A stretch of 64,000 nucleotides of DNA. Origin: an uncultured Phycisphaerales bacterium (lineage in GTDB: Bacteria > Planctomycetota > Phycisphaerae > Tepidisphaerales > Tepidisphaeraceae). The stretch is from contig CAVWVQ010000003.1 in the NCBI GenBank assembly GCA_963758525.1, forward strand, positions 4,832,001 to 4,896,000, read 5' to 3'. Below the pieces are notes generated by a model that did no database searches, was not told the origin of the DNA, and saw only the letters and a list, made by a program, of their open reading frames with translations. The position numbers and the translations under genes were made by a program. Below, one piece after another: positions 10,963-25,573 of the stretch (the stretch's first letter is position 1; the number at the start of each line of letters is the position of its first letter).

Positions 10963-11125
10963 CGAAATCCGGTGGCTTGCCCCCGAAGCCCATCGCGAAC
11001 TTTCGTCAGGCTGCTGACCAGCAAATCGCCCAAATTGTGCTTCGTCGGCTTCCGCATGAATCGGTCCTTTCATCTACTGCAACTGGGTGCCTACCGCACA
11101 TCTTCCAGGGTCTGCCAAGCTTTCG

Positions 11126-12388
11126 TCACGCTCGCTTGACGACGATCGCGCTGTTCTTGCTTCCAAACGCGATGCAGTTGCACAGGGCGGCCCGGACCTG
11201 CGCCGGCCGCGCTTCGTGCGGAATGTAATCCAGATCGCAGGCGGGGTCGTGATTTTGGAGATTGATCGTGGGGTGTAGGTATCCGCAGTGCATGCCGAGA
11301 ATCGTCGCCGCAAGCCCGGCTGCGCCGCAGCGCCCTGGGGATGGCCGATCATTGATTTGGTGGAGCTCATGGGGATGGACCGCGCGAGCGGGCCGAAGCA
11401 TTTCTTGATGGCGGCGGTTTCCATGCGGTCGTTGAGCTCAGTGCTGGTGCCGTGCAGATTGACGTAGTCGATGTCAGTTGTTGAAAGGGAAGCGTCGGCC
11501 AGTGCGAGCTCGATCGCGCGAACGGGTTCGAGCACGTCGGGGGCGATCTGGACCCGATGGTAGGCGTCGCAAGTTGACGCGTAGCCGGCCAGCTCCGCAA
11601 GGGCGGGCGCGCCCCGCCGAGCCGCGTGGTCGGCGTCCTCGAGCACAAACATCCAGGCGCCCTCGCCCAGCACAAATCCATCGCGATCGGCGGAGAAGGG
11701 GCGCGATGACTGGCGCGGATCATCCCATTGGCGCGTGGAGACGACGCGAAGCTTCTCGAAGGCGGTGAGAATGCCGTGCGAAATGATCGCATCCGCTCCG
11801 CCGGCAAGCATCATGGGGATAATGCCGGCGCGGATGAGCAGCGACGCGTAGCCCAGCGCGTCGGTGCTGCTGGTGCATCCCGTGGAGAGGACGTGCGACG
11901 GACCGCGAAGTCCCAGGGCGATGGAGAGTTCGCTGGAGAGGTTGCCGTGGGTGCCGGCAGTGATGGAAAAGAGGGAGCCTTTGCCCTGGGTGTGAAAGAG
12001 GCGGTATTGCTCCTCGACAAAGGCCTGCCCGCCGCCGCCGGTCCCCAGGGCAACGCCGATTGCGCTGAGCGTCGTGGTCGTCGCTGGAGATGTTGAGCCC
12101 GGCGCATTCCATCGCTTCCCTGGATGCGGCAAGCGCGAGGGGAATGATTCGCGGTACGCGGCGCAGTTCGGCGGGTTCGAGCACGGTGGTGGGATCAAAA
12201 TCGAGAATCTGCCCGACCGCAGTTGTTCGCAGACCGGCTGTGTCAATTCCCGCAGGGCGAACCAGGCCGCTGCGCCCGGCCCGGCAGGCCGCTCCAAAGT
12301 TCGCCCGGCCCACACCGTTGGGGCTGACCACCCCCATACCGGTGATGACGACGCGGGGACGATGGTGCGCTGATCCCGCAATTGGCAT
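11126..12388 (-). CDS. FabF-like beta-ketoacyl-ACP synthase; frameshifts near 12062 and 11330 (probably sequencing indels)
   Basis: RVVITGMGVVSP, STGCTSS (Cys), NLHGTST and KSMIGH (His), CIAFGSKN spread over three frames. Confidence 0.85.
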
Positions 12389-12472
12389 GGCATGCGATTG
12401 TAGGACGCCGCTCGGGAGAGGAGCCGGAGAAAGAAAAAAGGGGATTTACTTCAAATGTCTTGAGGAGCGCTC

Positions 12473-17346: not shown

Positions 17347-18222
17347 CTACCCCAGCATTCCCGAGGTCGCCGAAACGAGCTTATCGAGATTTTCGCGGGT
17401 GGCGGCGACGACGTCGGGATTGATCTGCAATGACTCGAGATCTTGAGGCTCCATCGGCTGATGGAGCGCCGTGAGGTTGAAGCCGTGCGTTGAATGGCAG
17501 CAAAGCGTGTCCGCGACGTAAACAAGGTTGACGAGCATGCGGTTTGGATCGTCCAACTCCGTCGGCCGATGATGATAGCCCACCACCAACTGGCACGGAC
17601 GGGGGAATCGCCAATGCTCGGCCAACGCCATGCCCAGCGCCTGGTGGTCGTTTCCGATTAAGTGCGTCTCAAGCTGGCAGAAGTTGCTGCCGGCGTCGGC
17701 GGCAGCCGTCTCGCATACCTGGCGGAGCATTTCGGGCGCGGTCTGCAGCGAGATCAGAATGCCGACATCGTGAATCATTCCCGCGAGAAATGCTTCGTCG
17801 CCGAGTGGGAGCTTCATGCGAATCGCCAGATCGCGGGCGGTCACCGCCACCGCAAGGCTGTGCGTCCAGATGTCTCTGGCAGTGAAATTGCGTCCAAGCT
17901 TCGCGCCGCGAAACAGTTGGCCAAGACTGGCGGCGACGGCGATGTTCTTCACGGCGTTGAGCCCAAGCATCACGATCGCCCGTTCGATCGAGCCGATCTG
18001 CCCCGATAATCCGTAGAACGCGCTGTTCACCACCTTCAGAATGCGCGTGACCAGAGCGGGATCGTGCGAGACGATGCGATTGAGCTGACTGGCGCTGCTG
18101 CGGGGATCTTCCACCGTCGCGATGATCCGATTCGTCACCTCCGGCAGTGTCGCGAGCGAGCTGACCGACTTGACGATCTCCTGCGGGGTCTTGTGCGGGC
18201 GTACGGCGGTGGCAACGCTCAT
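17347..18222 (-). CDS. HDOD domain protein
   Basis: LATLPEV, DPALVTRILKVVNSAFYG, AGMIHDVG, WRFP motifs. Confidence 0.92.
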   Translation of the reverse strand: MSVATAVRPHKTPQEIVKSVSSLATLPEVTNRIIATVEDPRSSASQLNRIVSHDPALVTRILKVVNSAFYGLSGQIGSIERAIVMLGLNAVKNIAVAASLGQLFRGAKLGRNFTARDIWTHSLAVAVTARDLAIRMKLPLGDEAFLAGMIHDVGILISLQTAPEMLRQVCETAAADAGSNFCQLETHLIGNDHQALGMALAEHWRFPRPCQLVVGYHHRPTELDDPNRMLVNLVYVADTLCCHSTHGFNLTALHQPMEPQDLESLQINPDVVAATRENLDKLVSATSGMLG

Positions 18223-18270: not shown

Positions 18271-19428
18271 TTAATACGAGATGAGTTTCCGGACGTGGCG
18301 ATTCAACTCAATGTGGGCCAGATGCCCGGCAATCGCTTTTCCTGCGTTCCCGCTGCCATAGGGATTTCGCGTCCCAAAACGATGCGGATGGCCGTTATTC
18401 CAGATCTCCGCGGCCGCGCGCTCGACGGCCTGCGGCGCTCGAACATGCACTACGTTGTCGCCCCGCTCCCGCCCGTGTTGGCGCGATCCGACGTCAATCA
18501 CGGGCGTTCCGAAACTGCCCGCCTCGATGATCCCGCTCGAGCTGTTGCCCACCAGCATCGCGGCATCACGCAGCAGGCCAAGATACAACATCCGCGGCAG
18601 GTCTTTGCAGAAGTGCCAGCCCGCTTGTCGCGACCGCTCCGCCTGTCGCCAGCAAGCGACGATCCCGTCGGCCCCGGGGTCGTTATTCGGATAGACCACC
18701 ATCATCTGCTCCACGCCCGCCCGCTGCACGGCACTCAGCAGCATCTCCGCCGCCAGACGCTCCGCGCCGGATTCCGACGTGGCCGGGTGCTGCACCACCA
18801 GCGCATAGCCGCGGCGTCGCAGCGCCGGAAATCGCTTCGCCACCACCTTCCACGGCTCGGCCTCGTGGAGATCGTCCAGCCCCGGCGAGCCGACGCGATG
18901 AATTCGCCAGCGATCTTCGCCGAGTTGCATCAGGCGTTGTGCGCTGCCCGCCGTGGCCGGAAAGTGCACATGAGTGAGTTTGCTGATCGCGTGACGCAGC
19001 GAGTCGTCCACCAGCCCCAGCGCACGATCCCCGCCATGCACGTGCGCGACAATGCGCCCGCCGATGTGCGCAGCCGACGCCGCGGCAAACGCTTCCACGC
19101 GGTCCCCGACGACCAGCACGATATCGCTTTTCAAATTTTCGAACTCCGCCGCGAGTCGGGCCATCACACGGCCAGTCTCGATGGCTGTTGCGGATTGCAA
19201 AACACTCTTTCGCCATGGAACGATGCAGTCGATATGCCAGCCACCGTCGCGAATCGCGTCGACGGAGTGTCCGCGCGTTCGATCGAGGTGCATGCCGGTG
19301 ACGATCAGTTGAAGGCGCAGCGAGGGAATTTTTTCAATCGCAAGGAGTGTCGAGCGCATCAGCCCGAACTCGGCACGGGTGCCGGTGACGAAGCAGACGT
19401 TACGAGGAGATCTGATCGGGGATGGCAT
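18271..19428 (-). CDS. neuC: UDP-N-acetylglucosamine 2-epimerase (hydrolysing)
   Basis: VTGTRAEFG, GDRVE, HVHGGD, GNSSSGIIEA motifs. Confidence 0.9.
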   Translation of the reverse strand: MPSPIRSPRNVCFVTGTRAEFGLMRSTLLAIEKIPSLRLQLIVTGMHLDRTRGHSVDAIRDGGWHIDCIVPWRKSVLQSATAIETGRVMARLAAEFENLKSDIVLVVGDRVEAFAAASAAHIGGRIVAHVHGGDRALGLVDDSLRHAISKLTHVHFPATAGSAQRLMQLGEDRWRIHRVGSPGLDDLHEAEPWKVVAKRFPALRRRGYALVVQHPATSESGAERLAAEMLLSAVQRAGVEQMMVVYPNNDPGADGIVACWRQAERSRQAGWHFCKDLPRMLYLGLLRDAAMLVGNSSSGIIEAGSFGTPVIDVGSRQHGRERGDNVVHVRAPQAVERAAAEIWNNGHPHRFGTRNPYGSGNAGKAIAGHLAHIELNRHVRKLISY

Positions 19429-19448
19429 TTGTGCCCGCGGCTTTCCCC

Positions 19449-19570
19449 GTGGCACGGGCATCCTGCCCGTGCTGGGTGCGTCAAAAGTAGTCCGACTCAA
19501 GCTCCGAAGAGCTGCTATCCACGTCTTTCTTCCCGCCACGCAACCGGCATGGGCAGGATGCCGATGCCAC
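19449..19570. repeat. GTGG-type REP doublet between neuB and neuC
   Basis: GTGGCACGGGCATCCTGCCCGTG ... CATGGGCAGGATGCCGATGCCAC inverted pair. Confidence 0.75.
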
Positions 19571-19588
19571 GGATGCCACGGGGACGCT

Positions 19589-20656
19589 TCAGGCGGATCG
19601 GCGCGACTCTTGTGGCGCGATCATCTGCCATTCGAGTAGCGTTCCGGCCGAAAGATCGCGCACGGCGCGTCGCCCAATCACTTCTTCAATCAATGCGGCG
19701 GAGATCCCGGTTCCGGGACGTTGAACGGTGATGTCTTCCCGGCGAATCTTCTGTCCCGCCGCGACTTGCGCCTGCAATACCAAACTCTGCCGGCTGACGC
19801 TCCGCACGTCTTCTTCGCACGGAAGCACGCGCTTGCCGCCCGATCCCAGCATCGTTTCCGTCTGGCGAATGAGTTCGACGTAGGTGGCAAATTGTTCGGG
19901 GTCGCTGCTCGCGGCGTGATCGGGCCCCTGCGCCTGGCAGTCGTAGGTGAGATGGCGTTCCACGAACCGCGCCCCGGCCGCAACAGCCAGCGCGCCGCCA
20001 AACGCGTCGGTGGTGTGATCGGAGTAGCCGATCTGCACTTGATATCGCTCCCGCAGCTCACCGATCCAATGCAAATGGGCGTCGCGAGCTTCCGTTGGAT
20101 AGCTGCTCACGCAATGCAGCAGCGCAAAGGGAATTCGCCAGTCGCCAAGCCAGCGCATCGTCGTGTCAATCTCTTCCAGCGTCGCGGCGCCCGTCGAGAG
20201 CAGCAGCGGAATCGAGAGATTCGCCGCGCTGTGCAGCAGCACGCGGTTCACCAGGTCGGGCGAAGCGATTTTGACGGCTGCCATGCCGAGTGATGCAAGC
20301 GTTTTGATATCTCCGGGCGAGAAGGGCGTTGCCAGCGGCACAAGGCCGCGCGATCGGATGTGCGAGGTAATCGTGTGCAACGCGTCGTGCGACAGTTCAT
20401 ACCCTCGAAGCATCTTCGCCGGATCTCGCGGCACGCCGGCGCGCGACTGGTATTCCGCAAGCCGGCAGGAGCGATGCATCAAAGTGTCGGCGCGAAAGAT
20501 TTGCAGCTTCACCGCGTCAGCGCCGCATTCGGCGGCAAGATCCACCAGTTCCAGCGCGCGGTCGAGTGAGCCGTCATGATTGACCCCGATCTCGGCGATG
20601 ATGAGCACCGGGTGGTCGTTGCCGATCGATTTCTCACCGATACACAGGTTTGTCAT
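19589..20656 (-). CDS. neuB: N-acetylneuraminate / nonulosonic acid synthase with SAF domain
   Basis: IIAEIGVNHDG, AVKLQ, LLHCVSSYP, GYSDHT, GPDH motifs. Confidence 0.93.
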   Translation of the reverse strand: MTNLCIGEKSIGNDHPVLIIAEIGVNHDGSLDRALELVDLAAECGADAVKLQIFRADTLMHRSCRLAEYQSRAGVPRDPAKMLRGYELSHDALHTITSHIRSRGLVPLATPFSPGDIKTLASLGMAAVKIASPDLVNRVLLHSAANLSIPLLLSTGAATLEEIDTTMRWLGDWRIPFALLHCVSSYPTEARDAHLHWIGELRERYQVQIGYSDHTTDAFGGALAVAAGARFVERHLTYDCQAQGPDHAASSDPEQFATYVELIRQTETMLGSGGKRVLPCEEDVRSVSRQSLVLQAQVAAGQKIRREDITVQRPGTGISAALIEEVIGRRAVRDLSAGTLLEWQMIAPQESRRSA

Positions 20657-21386
20657 GACGCCATCCTGATCCAGTCGCGCTCGGACCGTGAGTCCCGCAA
20701 GACCGCCTCGGCCCAATAGAGGTCGCGAACGTGATCCACTTCGACGGTCGCGCCCATTTCCACACGGATGCCGCGACGGTCGATCCCAAAGAACGCGTGC
20801 GGATCGGCAGGATTATCGTTTCCCTTCAACATCGAAGCACGCGATACCGCGACAACCGCGCCGTCGTGAAGGAACACCGGAGACAGATCCTGGCGGCGAT
20901 GGATACTCCCCGCGTGAAGCGGCTTCACGACATCGCCATCCATTTCGTGCATCCACGCGGGATGCCATTTGCCGACGGGGCAGAACGAGCGAACCGAATC
21001 GCAGCCGGTTGCCCTCAGTGTCTGCAAGGCGCCATCGATCGCGCCTTGCGGCGCACGGGAACATTGCCGTAGAGAACCACCAGGGCATCCGCCCGAAAGC
21101 CGCTGCGCGATTCGACCGTCTGCATGGCGTGCAGCATGGCGTCCTGCACCGACGCATCTGCCGTCGCCAGATGCGCGGGCCGGGCGATCGTCTCCAATCC
21201 CGCGGCCGCGGCGAGCCGACGGACCTCGGCGCAGTCGCTGGAAACAACCACCCGCGAAAGCGATCGCGCCGCCCGCGCATGGTCGAACGTGTAGGAAATG
21301 ACCGGACGGCCCAGCAGCGGGAGCAGATGCTTGCCGGCCAGGCCCTGGCTCCCCGCGCGGGCGAGGATGACGGCGAGAGTGTTCAT
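20653..21386 (-). CDS. neuA: Acylneuraminate cytidylyltransferase; frameshift near 21050
   Basis: ILARAGSQGLAGK motif, then C-terminal RRQDL..., VEVDHVRDL in another frame; ATGA overlaps with both neighbours. Confidence 0.85.
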
Positions 21387-23002
21387 GGTCGATGCCATTC
21401 GTTGCAGGTCGCGCACAGCGGGTGCGCGGCCCATTGTTTTTGTTGATGGTCGCTTCGGAGGTTTGCCAGCCCGGTGGTCCAGACCGCGGAAATCGAGTCG
21501 GTTGCGACATGGCCGAGAGTTTGAGCCGCAACAAGATCCTCCTCGCAGGAGACGATTCGGCCATCACTGAGGATGGTGATGCGCGACGCCAGACGCGAAC
21601 ACGTGCGCCGGCCGGGAGGCGTCATGTCGGCGACGCCGCTGTCGGCGATCAGCCCGCCGAACGTGCTGGGTCCGCGAAGGACGGCGCAGTTGAGCGCTTT
21701 GAGCCACTGGTCGTACCAGGCTTCCATCTCAGCGATGTTCTGCCGGCACTTGGTAAAAACCGGAACGATGATCGGAACGCCGTCGCCGCGACGCTGGCGC
21801 TGCCCCACGAAAGCCCGGATGTTTTCCAGGACGCGGGCATACGCGTCCAGCCCCATCACTTCGAAGTAGGTCGCGTCGGTGATCGCCGGCAAATGGACGG
21901 AAATAATGTCTGCCGGTCCCATGGCGAGGCTTGCGATACGGTCTCGATTTTCCCCGAGCAAATCAGTTTCAACGTGAAGAGCCCGAATACCTGCCGATCT
22001 TGCGGCATCGAGAATTTCAAACAGCTCGCGATGCAATAGCGGATCGCCCGCGCCGGCGAAGGTGACGCGGACATCGTCGGCCTGCGCAAGCTGTTGGAAA
22101 ATCGCGCGGGCTGTTGCAAGCGGGAGATCGGGCCGGCTGAACCCGCCGACGCGCGCCGGCGAGAAAATGGGATTGCTGGCGCGGCGCGTGTTCAACTCCA
22201 TCACCACTTCGCGCGGAAGCGAGTCGGTCCAATTGCACGTGCTGACGCGCTGAACGATCTCCATCGCTCCGGCGATCTGCAGTTGCCCGTTGAGGCACGC
22301 GGTCGCGTATTCCGTCCGGGCAATCTGCCGATCCGAATCGAGCACAAAACGCTCCACGGTTCGGGCGATGGCAGGAGGAACGGCAAGACAGGCGTCGGTG
22401 CCGATCATCTCGCGACTCACATGATCGGGAATGTAATGCAGGAGCCGTCCGGCATGCAGTTTCGTCGCGGCCAGGCGCTTCAGCAGGGGGATGCGAAGCA
22501 GCGCGCCGCACAAGCCCGGCGCCGCCGCGGAGAAGATGATCTCCTGGTCGCGATGCGCATCGGCATGAGCAATCAGCTCGTCCGCCAGCATCGGATCGAC
22601 CAGAGCCGCCGCCGGGTCAATGAGCAGCACGCCTTCGCTTTCCACCCGCGCCGCAAGCTCCAGCACCCACGGGGCATAAAAGCCGATGTCAAACGCGCAG
22701 GTTCCCAGCAATCCTCCGCGCCAACCGTCGGCCCAGCGCCGCGATGCGGAAACGGCCTCGATCTGACTGATGCGCGAGCGCGGTCCCTTGGCGAGGACAA
22801 ACGCGCCGATCTCGTCGGCGATGCCCGCAATGCGCGGAAGCTGATCCTCCCAGCAGAGCACCGCCGCCGATGAAAGCTGCCGGCTCATCGAGAGCCGGCG
22901 CAGCGTCCATTCAACGACCGGCAGATCGCGAAACAGCCGCGTGCCGCTGTGCCGATCCGGACCTTCGTGCAGGAGCGAGACAATAGCGGAAATGTTGCTC
23001 AC
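21383..23002 (-). CDS. Cytidylyltransferase-like / degenerate radical SAM / SPASM fusion protein
   Basis: GTG start overlaps the maf stop; SpsF-like N-terminus; ELNTRRASNPIFSP in place of CxxxCxxC; AGDPLLH; SPASM CSRL...SCEED...CATCNEW. Confidence 0.75.
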   Translation of the reverse strand: MSNISAIVSLLHEGPDRHSGTRLFRDLPVVEWTLRRLSMSRQLSSAAVLCWEDQLPRIAGIADEIGAFVLAKGPRSRISQIEAVSASRRWADGWRGGLLGTCAFDIGFYAPWVLELAARVESEGVLLIDPAAALVDPMLADELIAHADAHRDQEIIFSAAAPGLCGALLRIPLLKRLAATKLHAGRLLHYIPDHVSREMIGTDACLAVPPAIARTVERFVLDSDRQIARTEYATACLNGQLQIAGAMEIVQRVSTCNWTDSLPREVVMELNTRRASNPIFSPARVGGFSRPDLPLATARAIFQQLAQADDVRVTFAGAGDPLLHRELFEILDAARSAGIRALHVETDLLGENRDRIASLAMGPADIISVHLPAITDATYFEVMGLDAYARVLENIRAFVGQRQRRGDGVPIIVPVFTKCRQNIAEMEAWYDQWLKALNCAVLRGPSTFGGLIADSGVADMTPPGRRTCSRLASRITILSDGRIVSCEEDLVAAQTLGHVATDSISAVWTTGLANLRSDHQQKQWAAHPLCATCNEWHRP

Positions 23003-24924
23003 GCCGCCTCCTTGAGAGACGCCGCCAGATTCGCAGTCACGTCGTCCATCAGCTTCTGAAAGTCGCGGGCGGCCTGCATGACGCCCAGCACATTTTCGAT
23101 GTCGCGCTCGACCTGCAGCCGCTGGCGATCCCTTCCGCAAACGCGCGAGGCCGCGATTTTCCGGTCGGCTTCGAACCGCTTGAGCTCTGTCGGTTGCGTG
23201 AGCTGGGTCACCAGGTCGTAGCATCTGCCAAGATCGTTCATCCGCTGGCGCAGCGCGTCGATCGCCGCAATCGCGCGATTGACGCGCGGCTGCGAGTCGA
23301 GATGGTCGCGAATCTCCTTGAGCAGCGGCAGCGTCTGCTCGCTGATCGACTCGATGGCGGCGGCTTCCTCCCTGCGTTTTGCGAGTGAACTGGCGCAGGC
23401 TGCAAGCCGGGTCCAGCTCAGTCCGGGATGGGGCGGGGCGGAGCCGGTCAATTCGCGCCGGCAAAAACGATCGCGTGCTTCAACGAGCGTCATCGGCGTG
23501 CAGCCCGCTTTGGCGGCGCCCCCTTCGGTGGCATCGATGATGCGCATGCGCGTCTTGAGGAAATCGCGCTCGAACTGCTGGAGGTAGCTGAAGAGCCGCT
23601 CTTCGGTGTACATCGGGCGGCCCTGATAATCGGTGATCTTGCGCAGGATGAATCGCTCGCGAACGATTTGGTCCCACTGCTTCATCTCGACGGAGCAGAA
23701 TCGCGACAGTTCCGGCCGCCAGACGTCTTCGTAACTGGTTCCGGGGGCGTAGCAGAGGCCGTCGCTGAAGCCCAGATCCTGGCCGACGAAGATGATCGGG
23801 TCGCACCCCATGTACTCGGCGAGGTAGTAGGCCAGATGCGCCACCGTCGCCCCGGGCGGAATCACCGCATGTTGCAGATTCATCTCATGAAGGAGACCTT
23901 CGGCGAAGTCGTTCCCAAGCACCGACAACGGGCCGGGGTTCAGTTCGAAAATGGCGTTGTTCGCCTTGGGCTCGGCAACCAGCTCGGTCTTGAGGTGAGC
24001 CGGAAGTTTCTCGAAGAAGCGCGTGCAGATTTCATGATAGTCCAGCGACGTCACGAACTGCGGCTCGATCCCCATCTCCAGTAGCGGTTGCAGAGTCGTC
24101 TGCACCGCCACGATCACCGCCCGGCCCTGCAGGTCTTTGAGCAGGTGTTTGTTTTTTCGCAGCGACGGCCCAGCCGAGACAATGATCGCCGGGTCCCCTT
24201 TGTGGCAGTCGCACAGGCGGGCGAGGGAGGGAGAGGCGGCGTACCAGCCGACGTTTTTCGCGATGTTCTCGGCGGTGCGCCGACTGTTGAGCACCAGCGT
24301 GTTCATGCTGGTTTGCCTGAACGAGGCAAACTCCTCCAGCCAGATCCGGACCTGCTCATAGAACGGCCCGGCCGTCTGCTGGCTGGGCGCATGGACGATC
24401 GTTTCGACCCCGACCGACAGCAGCGCGGTGTGCGGATTGAGGCGGGTGAGTAGTTCGGATTTGTCCAGCGACGTGAAGAAGAATAGCCGGCGGCTGTCGA
24501 GCAAGCGCGACAGATCGCGCGACTCCAGCGCCGTCCGCAGCAGACGCAGATCCGCTTCGAATATGCAGAAGATTGCTTCGTCGCCGGCTCGCTCGAACAG
24601 GGCCTCGACGTGATAACCGAGCCCGAAGCCGAGCACGAAATAGGCTGCCTTCCCGGCTGCATCGATCGGATCGACCAGCTTCGCGGCGTCTGCGACTGGA
24701 TCGAATCGGCTGTGAAGATAGATCCGCCCTCCGTCGGACCTGGCGATCGCGACAGTTGGAGGCCCCGATTTTGAAGGTTCGGTCGGATAACCGCCCGGCT
24801 CGGGCAACGCTTCTATCAGCGCCGCCAGCCTCGGCTCATTCACCCACAGCGAAGCAAGATTCGCCAGATAGGGCGCATCTTGCGGAAGGATGAATCGGGT
24901 TGAATCGTCACTGCTTGCGGTCAT
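22999..24924 (-). CDS. Motility-associated factor (Maf, DUF115) glycosyltransferase
   Basis: YLHSRFDP, GFGLGYH, IIVSAGPSL, GATVAHLAYYLAEYMGCDPIIFVGQDL, IIDATEGGA. Confidence 0.88.
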   Translation of the reverse strand: MTASSDDSTRFILPQDAPYLANLASLWVNEPRLAALIEALPEPGGYPTEPSKSGPPTVAIARSDGGRIYLHSRFDPVADAAKLVDPIDAAGKAAYFVLGFGLGYHVEALFERAGDEAIFCIFEADLRLLRTALESRDLSRLLDSRRLFFFTSLDKSELLTRLNPHTALLSVGVETIVHAPSQQTAGPFYEQVRIWLEEFASFRQTSMNTLVLNSRRTAENIAKNVGWYAASPSLARLCDCHKGDPAIIVSAGPSLRKNKHLLKDLQGRAVIVAVQTTLQPLLEMGIEPQFVTSLDYHEICTRFFEKLPAHLKTELVAEPKANNAIFELNPGPLSVLGNDFAEGLLHEMNLQHAVIPPGATVAHLAYYLAEYMGCDPIIFVGQDLGFSDGLCYAPGTSYEDVWRPELSRFCSVEMKQWDQIVRERFILRKITDYQGRPMYTEERLFSYLQQFERDFLKTRMRIIDATEGGAAKAGCTPMTLVEARDRFCRRELTGSAPPHPGLSWTRLAACASSLAKRREEAAAIESISEQTLPLLKEIRDHLDSQPRVNRAIAAIDALRQRMNDLGRCYDLVTQLTQPTELKRFEADRKIAASRVCGRDRQRLQVERDIENVLGVMQAARDFQKLMDDVTANLAASLKEAA

Positions 24925-25008
24925 TGGCGCACAGGGGTAGCGTTACCCAGTCTTGTTTATCGGACGTGGGGGCGGGAAATAGTGAGTGGTTCCCTTCTTG
25001 GGAGCAGA

Positions 25009-25292
25009 ATGCGGATCGAGCAACTGATTTGGCCAGCAGAAAGGGTTGAACACATCGCCCGGCATGGCGTGACGCCTGAAGAAGTCGAAGAAGCGTGCTT
25101 CGGAGCACCCTTCGTACGCAGAGGAAAATCCCGGGTGAAAATCCGGTATATTATGTTCTGGGACAAAGTGATGCTGGTCGTTGCCTCTTCTGCGTCGTGA
25201 TCGGCTTCCCCGATGGCAACGGATATCCGGTGACCGCGCGGGAAATGACCAAGAATGAGAAGCGTCGCTACCGCAAATGGAAAAACGGATGA
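25009..25292 (+). CDS. BrnT-family type II toxin; frameshift near 25130
   Basis: HIARHGVTPEEVEE followed in another frame by YYVLGQSDAGR...PVTAREM. Confidence 0.8.
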
Positions 25293-25573
25293 AGAAGATC
25301 AAACTGCCAAAAACCGATTCTATCCAGAAGTTGGCCCAGTTCTGGGATACCCATGACCTGACCAGCTTCGAAGATGAGTTGGAGGAACTCAAGAGGCCAG
25401 TTTTCGCGCGTGTGGCTCCTACTCTCGAAATTAAGCTGTCTCTGGACGCCCGCGAAACCAAGGCGCTTGAACAAATCGCTCATGCCAGCGGTCTGTCAAT
25501 TGAAGAACTGGTTCGCACATGGGTGCAAAAGAAATTGCCCGTCCGGGCAATTGATTATCGAAGACAATCATGA
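25277..25573 (+). CDS. CopG/BrnA-like antitoxin
   Basis: LPKTDSIQKLAQFWDTHDLT and C-terminal RHH-like segment; overlaps the toxin end. Confidence 0.75.
   Translation: MEKRMKKIKLPKTDSIQKLAQFWDTHDLTSFEDELEELKRPVFARVAPTLEIKLSLDARETKALEQIAHASGLSIEELVRTWVQKKLPVRAIDYRRQS

Follow-up and report, generated by a model that had tools for sequence, protein, structure and literature searches.

Expressed without partners, Maf enzymes are often inactive. In the tripartite GlfM–Maf-2 system of flagellin glycosylation (Unay, Kint, Viollier, 10.1101/2023.12.03.569772), glycosylation is reported to need GlfM, a predicted four-helix bundle that is encoded in cis downstream of maf and promotes flagellin binding, and split and fused forms of GlfM and Maf have been proposed to interconvert. 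Here we analyse a locus in a 64,000-nucleotide (nt) stretch of DNA from an uncultured Phycisphaerales bacterium (assembly GCA_963758525.1, contig CAVWVQ010000003.1, positions 4,832,001–4,896,000; the whole stretch is called the window), in which maf is followed by the gene for a 539-amino-acid (aa) fusion protein, here named X, and then by neuA, neuB and neuC. Like GlfM, X is encoded in cis downstream of maf and has both split and fused forms with Maf, but the two are set apart by fold: the model of X is an enzyme-derived alpha/beta structure with two enzyme folds and contains no four-helix bundle of the GlfM type. We consider it moderately probable that X is a non-catalytic subunit of Maf, likely one that binds or channels a sugar carried by cytidine monophosphate (CMP). 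The Maf itself would decorate flagellin with such a CMP-activated sugar, a nonulosonic acid of the sialic-acid-like kind.

The best NCBIfam match of X is TIGR04321, 'spiro-SPASM protein' (118.9 bits against a cut-off of 250), a profile also matched by all 25 aligned members of the X family. The family is described as having a three-part layout with frequent cysteine loss, in which a cytidylyltransferase-like domain is joined to a (pseudo-)radical S-adenosylmethionine (SAM) domain and a SPASM domain, and X has this architecture. The architecture is thus already on record, as the spiro-SPASM type. X differs from TIGR04321 in forming a Planctomycetota branch, in its sub-cut-off score, in its tight tie to maf–neuABC and in being sometimes fused to Maf. 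Relatives cover profile positions ~75 to 507; the cut-off was reached by none of the eight members tested (best 201 bits) and in none of 151 genomes sampled evenly across the phylum. NCBIfam also holds a 'pseudo-SAM/SPASM' family, TIGR04347, so that SPASM proteins without the radical-SAM cysteine triad are themselves a catalogued idea.

The AlphaFold2 (AF2) model of X has a predicted local distance difference test score (pLDDT) of 93 and a predicted template modelling score (pTM) of 0.93. Foldseek placed BtrN (4M7T) first (E 1e-11), and by VIA-align the C-terminal half matches SuiB (Z 21.2) and BtrN (Z 20.5) equally well. The N-terminal domain aligns with the Leptospira cytidylyltransferase 6OEW (Z 20.8, 218 residues, root-mean-square deviation 2.9) and, at a lower score, with CMP-N-acetylneuraminic acid (Neu5Ac) synthetase (Z 15.3). 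Pfam detects SPASM (PF13186) above cut-off and Radical_SAM below it. In the ESM Atlas, X falls with Planctomycetota clusters, with a spirochaete spiro-SPASM cluster (0.97) and with a cluster combining CTP_transf_3, radical SAM and SPASM (0.95); two further Maf plus radical-SAM clusters are leads only (<0.9). By its model, X is an SpsF-type cytidylyltransferase followed by a BtrN-like barrel, a partial TIM barrel with a GGE-type motif, and a one-cluster Twitch tail. The model supports the radical-SAM fold that the earlier note on this DNA suggested for the cysteine-less region.

The residues that made each fold an enzyme are largely gone. R274, P278 and S281 of X occupy the positions of the three radical-SAM cysteines of BtrN, so that, as had been noticed from the sequence, none is left. 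We compared X with a closest set of 120 listed among 499 matches (X itself and its 119 best homologues) and with a wider set, the 150 best representatives at 50% identity. None of the 120 sequences of the closest set has the triad. In the wider set a full triad stands at the radical-SAM position in 2 of 150, whereas 131 have no cysteine at all in the 14 columns after E269; of six CxxxCxxC pattern matches among the 150, only these two sit at that position. X shares with the BtrN-type radical-SAM/Twitch sugar dehydrogenases (4M7T, 4M7S) the barrel, the Twitch fold and the four auxiliary cysteines, but lacks CxxxCxxC, and with it a SAM-cleaving cluster, and carries an extra N-terminal domain. C468, C486, C530 and C533 align with the four auxiliary-cluster cysteines of BtrN, and 131 of the 137 representatives that cover these positions have all four. 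The tail is therefore of the one-cluster Twitch type: the four cysteines described as a SPASM-type set are indeed present, but they do not make a two-cluster SPASM domain. The GGE-type motif, GAGDP at residues 317–321, is also retained (G317 in 142 and G319 in 148 of 150), and the GGxG(D/E)P pattern, T346 and D365 are kept in most of the 150.

The N-terminal domain has the fold and the late R-x-x-x-D motif of the SpsF/KdsB/NeuA cytidylyltransferases (6OEW, 6IFD and 9FTB; Z 20.8, 15.3 and 15.1), but its nucleotide-binding loop and first metal-binding aspartate are eroded and a WRGG insert has been added. X has neither the ARxxSxRLxxK loop nor the GDxP aspartate of active CMP-nonulosonate synthetases (SpsF/NeuA/KdsB), and in a profile comparison with 6OEW the 150 representatives do not keep its QARMGSTRLPGK-type loop or its TGDCP aspartate. 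D136, R218 and D222 are kept in 136–142 of the 150, and the RxWxxxWRGG stretch is near-invariant (W94 in 144, G96 in 140). Mean identity to close homologues is 55–56% for every one of the three parts, and the WRGG stretch reaches 81%; since the parts are about equally conserved, the protein is maintained as a whole. Both domains are predicted to keep their fold while the catalytic motifs are lost. In a FastTree phylogeny of 176 rows (triad columns removed, five free-standing radical-SAM proteins as outgroup; L061, L062, L063, L071, L072, L073, L024 and most close homologues omitted; L labels denote loci and G labels genomes, G000 being the present one), the two triad-intact lineages stand apart, nested among triad-less ones, with weak support at the deep forks. 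If the triad was not regained, this nesting implies that it was lost several times. The cysteine loss is old and widely shared, and the earlier description of X as a conserved pseudo-enzyme holds.

X keeps close company with Maf and flagellin. Among same-family loci, maf lies directly upstream of X in 19 of 19, and X is followed by neuA in 18 and neuB in 17 (two loci end early); the source names of close homologues are Tepidisphaeraceae, Humisphaera and Phycisphaerales. Across 40 relatives, X occurs in 32, all of which have flagellin, and five of the eight without X lack flagellin (a match in G026 covering only the C-terminal half was counted as absence, and G004 is one row both here and in the same-family locus count, with no claim depending on it alone). 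In the phylum sample, 35 genomes match the X profile, of which 23 cover the N-terminal domain and 12, matching the C-terminal half only, were dropped. Flagellin is present in all 23 genomes with full X, against 73 of 151 overall (nominal Fisher p 7e-9, overstated since the genomes are kin), and so is Maf, adjacent in 15 and elsewhere in 8. Every one of the 24 genomes with a Maf of the closest clade has X, as a free protein in 22 and as a fusion in 2; five relatives without X have no Maf of that clade. The linkage to maf is conserved, and none of the three outcomes named beforehand as fatal to the idea (close homologues all keeping the triad, no radical-SAM fold, no conserved link to maf) was observed. 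A plasmid collection gave only four partial matches, all to other radical-SAM genes.

Individual relatives vary this arrangement. In G110, which has an intact triad, the order is flgL–fliW–fliC–fliD–fliS–small gene–maf–X–neuA–neuB–neuC–methyltransferase–GNAT–dehydratase–aminotransferase. X lies between two Maf genes in G074 (L074:6316-11362), and G068 has a split maf–X pair plus a further copy in which the two are fused and the terminal cysteines retained (L062:8019-11519 with L079). In four deep-branching relatives the gene directly upstream of maf is a conserved one of ~200 aa, which lies elsewhere in this genome; its product is a candidate flagellin-binding, GlfM-like factor.

The fusions suggest which parts of X are dispensable. 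Searching with the stretch where Maf and X join in one fusion yielded 41 long proteins, and two more bring the set to 43; it is biased, the query itself having no iron–sulfur (Fe–S) tail, and a separate fusion in G068 keeps its tail. In all 43 long matches examined, Maf precedes X in one open reading frame (ORF) and the N-terminal domain is kept. The triad is present in none, the terminal CxxC in 1 of 43 of this biased set and [W/F]RGG in 41. The 1,109-aa fusion of G039 (pLDDT 88, pTM 0.83, low-confidence linker at 639–647) matches both Maf 5MU5 and 6OEW; as pTM reaches 0.83 while Maf makes up ~58% of the chain, this one control-free model without an interface score suggests that Maf and X are held in fixed positions relative to each other. 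The match of a fused orthologue's model to 5MU5 (E 7e-18) also backs the identity of the maf gene here. An apparent fusion in L061 (G069) was rejected: Maf lies in another frame, and there are hence two adjacent genes.

We favour a non-catalytic Maf subunit because the N-terminal domain is never lost, whereas X can do without its Fe–S tail when it is joined to Maf. Several observations count on the other side. X is not beside maf in the 8 genomes noted above, and no full X was found in eight genomes (72–94% complete) with more distant Mafs; Mafs in general therefore do not need X. The genomes are related, so that co-occurrence counts overstate their independence, and the fusion pTM is control-free and comes from a different, more degenerate family member. 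The kept GGE-type motif, T346 and D365 could be signs that X still binds a ligand or retains some catalysis. In Treponema pallidum, the spiro-SPASM gene TPANIC_0284 is not a neighbour of the genes for Maf, DUF115 and SpsE (PMC8525777).

X could still be an enzyme that tailors a CMP-nonulosonate or its precursor without radicals, through the barrel pocket, possibly SAM, and the Twitch cluster. The retained barrel residues, among them K418/R in most of the 150, and the Twitch cysteines would suit this, as would the sugar-acting radical-SAM enzymes that are its closest folds (BtrN, DesII, BlsE and SpeY) and the methyltransferase, GNAT and B12-radical-SAM genes in some relatives' clusters. We nevertheless regard it as unlikely: most fusions show further barrel decay and a lost Twitch cluster while the N-terminal domain stays, and no consistent residue set replaces the triad across the family. 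The earlier suggestion that X makes an undescribed nonulosonic acid found no support. A role as an Fe–S sensor of redox state or oxygen, with the Twitch cluster gating Maf or NeuA, would account for the four cysteines of nearly all free-standing members, but the terminal CxxC is gone from 42 of the 43 fusions of the biased set and from the free-standing L027, and we disfavour sensing as the core role, giving it a low probability. Equally improbable to us is that the N-terminal domain, through an atypical active site, still works as a nucleotidyltransferase or CMP-sugar hydrolase and so provides a second enzyme for activation or proofreading; D136, R218 and D222, the closeness to the Leptospira fold and the X loci without adjacent neuA (L043, L051) speak for it, whereas the missing loop and aspartate of 6OEW, and the NeuA with an intact loop that follows X in 18 of the 19 same-family loci, speak against it. 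That the missing cysteines reflect local decay or sequencing error might be suspected in an assembly with indel errors, one of them in the neighbouring neuA, but X is a single unbroken ORF and the same loss in every one of the 120 close sequences and in 148 of the 150 distant ones effectively rules this out.

If X is a non-catalytic Maf subunit, its ancestor would have been a fusion of two enzymes, a CMP-nonulosonate synthetase of the SpsF type and a BtrN-like radical-SAM/Twitch enzyme acting on sugars, with radical chemistry lost several times and CMP activation carried out by NeuA. The degenerate N-terminal domain, which includes the WRGG insert, would dock on Maf and bind the CMP-sugar or CMP, either to pass the donor on from NeuA or to stabilise Maf, while the Twitch cluster would be mainly structural in free X. 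The simplest use of such a domain would be to keep CMP-sugar or CMP in place between NeuA and Maf. We propose more tentatively, as a possibility that we think does not carry the balance of probability, that the whole Maf clade, in Planctomycetota and perhaps in spirochaetes, is an obligate two-subunit flagellin glycosyltransferase, in which a double pseudo-enzyme subunit that lost radical chemistry several times acts as a channel for the labile CMP-nonulosonate between NeuA and Maf.

All five genes are encoded by the minus strand, in the order maf, X, neuA, neuB, neuC (Table 1). The start/stop overlaps reported in the earlier note are there: maf and X are joined at GCG-TGA/GTG, X and neuA at CCA-TGA/ATG, and neuA and neuB at TCA-TGA/ATG, each over 4 nt, and neuC follows neuB after a gap, without overlap. 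The neuC ORF spans 19539-18271, with a likely start at 19428-19461. Downstream, an HDOD-domain gene may be a sixth operon member; such a gene was found near the cluster in 6 of 20 relatives' loci, other families included, in retrieved stretches whose neighbours were scanned in part. Upstream of maf, at 24990-25500 on the plus strand, two short frames resemble by eye a BrnT-like toxin, apparently broken, and a CopG-like antitoxin. No RNA holders are listed for the locus.

Table 1. Features of the maf–X–neuABC locus and associated genes. Positions are those of the window unless a locus or genome label is given.
Feature	Position	Strand	Evidence
maf, Maf/DUF115 flagellin nonulosonate glycosyltransferase homologue, 641 aa	22999..24924	-	PF01973 E 1e-38; PF20157 weak; NF050051 PseD E 6e-21 (below cut-off)
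X, spiro-SPASM-like double pseudo-enzyme, 539 aa, GTG start	21383..23002	-	TIGR04321 E 2e-34; AF2 model
X N-terminal SpsF-type cytidylyltransferase-like domain, residues 1-260	22223..23002	-	Structural match 6OEW; residue counts
RxWxxxWRGG motif, family-specific, residues 88-97	22712..22741	-	Conservation counts
Pseudo-radical-SAM partial barrel, residues 261-450	21653..22222	-	Foldseek top match BtrN 4M7T
Lost cysteine triad segment ELNTRRASNPIFSP, residues 269-282	22157..22198	-	Alignment to BtrN
Twitch-type cysteines C468/C486/C530/C533, one predicted auxiliary [4Fe-4S] cluster	21404..21601	-	PF13186 above cut-off; BtrN alignment
neuA, CMP-nonulosonate synthetase, frameshifted	20653..21386	-	PF02348; reading frames
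neuB/legI-type nonulosonate synthase, 355 aa	19589..20656	-	PF03102 + SAF; TIGR03569 317 bits
neuC/legG-type hydrolysing 2-epimerase	18271..19461	-	TIGR03568 above cut-off
HDOD-domain gene downstream of neuC	17347..18222	-	PF08668
~200-aa gene	L110:7025-7624 (G000:C3:451024-451623)	-	ESM Atlas: DUF8042/TP0873_N clusters, 0.93
~200-aa gene homologues	L060:9260-9865, L078:3771-4382, L076:12367-13011, L074:11407-12003		

A 1-nt frameshift near 21050-21065, overlooked in the earlier note, breaks neuA. It is probably an assembly error, because neuA is in one frame in all 18 relatives checked, a near-identical 250-nt contig has one extra base after 21049 (a single contig of depth 2.4, with five other differences), and other genes of this assembly are split by frameshifts: a fabF-like gene (11074-12393, minus strand), fumC (L096:5138-6615) and a DegT gene (L110:8911-10154). 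Together these reading frames suggest that indel errors run through the whole of this long-contig assembly.

On their own, NeuA, NeuB and NeuC would yield CMP-Neu5Ac. NeuB scores 317 bits to the NeuB model TIGR03569 against 228 bits to PseI, both below cut-off, and NeuC is of the hydrolysing type. Maf enzymes are able to transfer Neu5Ac, according to one report (10.1101/2020.06.03.131540). The observation that the operon holds no pse/leg dehydratase or aminotransferase is correct, but carries little weight: this genome has genes of these kinds scattered at other sites, and deeper relatives have them clustered with neu genes. The genome has a single PglF-like 4,6-dehydratase, which matches WlaL at E 3e-76 and the inverting enzyme at 3e-33. 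Three loci for DegT aminotransferases and a gene for a NeuD/PglB acetyltransferase are present as well, and with them every gene type of a legionaminic-type route. Genes for a dehydratase and an aminotransferase accompany neuC in both G110 and G045, and one DegT gene here is 46–51% identical to theirs. As these genes exist elsewhere in the genome and sit with the neu genes in deeper relatives, a legionaminic-type sugar is a reasonably probable donor, and Neu5Ac a less probable but serious candidate, on gene content. The dehydratase gene (L096:7182-10203; G000:C3:3745181-3748202) encodes ~410–440 aa against ~670 aa in other families and lies directly after a flagellin gene. A flagellin-specific role for it is unproven, the adjacency occurring only in G000 and G003 and orthologues being found in non-flagellated relatives. 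In one relative, neuA, neuB and neuC are interrupted by neuD and a gene for a B12-dependent radical-SAM protein (L025:4849-8171), which suggests lineage-specific sugar tailoring there. One of the four flagellin-domain matches in this genome is FlgL, leaving three flagellins, whose central regions are 25–28% serine and threonine; the genome thus has a Maf/DUF115 gene, a nonulosonate pathway and flagellins together.

Full-text searches returned no paper on 'spiro-SPASM' (most subscription papers lie outside their coverage) and only unrelated work on 'pseudo-SAM' with 'SPASM', and the link of X to Maf did not appear in the literature searched. The X family is functionally undescribed in that literature, although its architecture is catalogued and Maf helpers have precedent. 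Interest is limited accordingly, the architecture being on record and the proposed role of X being a prediction. In T. pallidum, PMC8525777 lists TPANIC_0284 as spiro-SPASM and transcribed, near TPANIC_0288, which is classed under surface-polysaccharide synthesis.

The locus points to a second Maf helper, unrelated to GlfM and made from two dead enzymes, and suggests a role for a spiro-SPASM family that has a retained and transcribed member even in the small genome of T. pallidum. If the proposed two-subunit glycosyltransferase is real, it would give the uncharacterised spiro-SPASM family a function and show a radical-SAM enzyme recycled as a glycosyltransferase subunit, and the rare triad-intact members would show the ancestral radical reaction on a nonulosonic acid. 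The triad-intact, triad-less and Maf-fused natural forms make up a series for the transition from radical-SAM enzyme to pseudo-enzyme.

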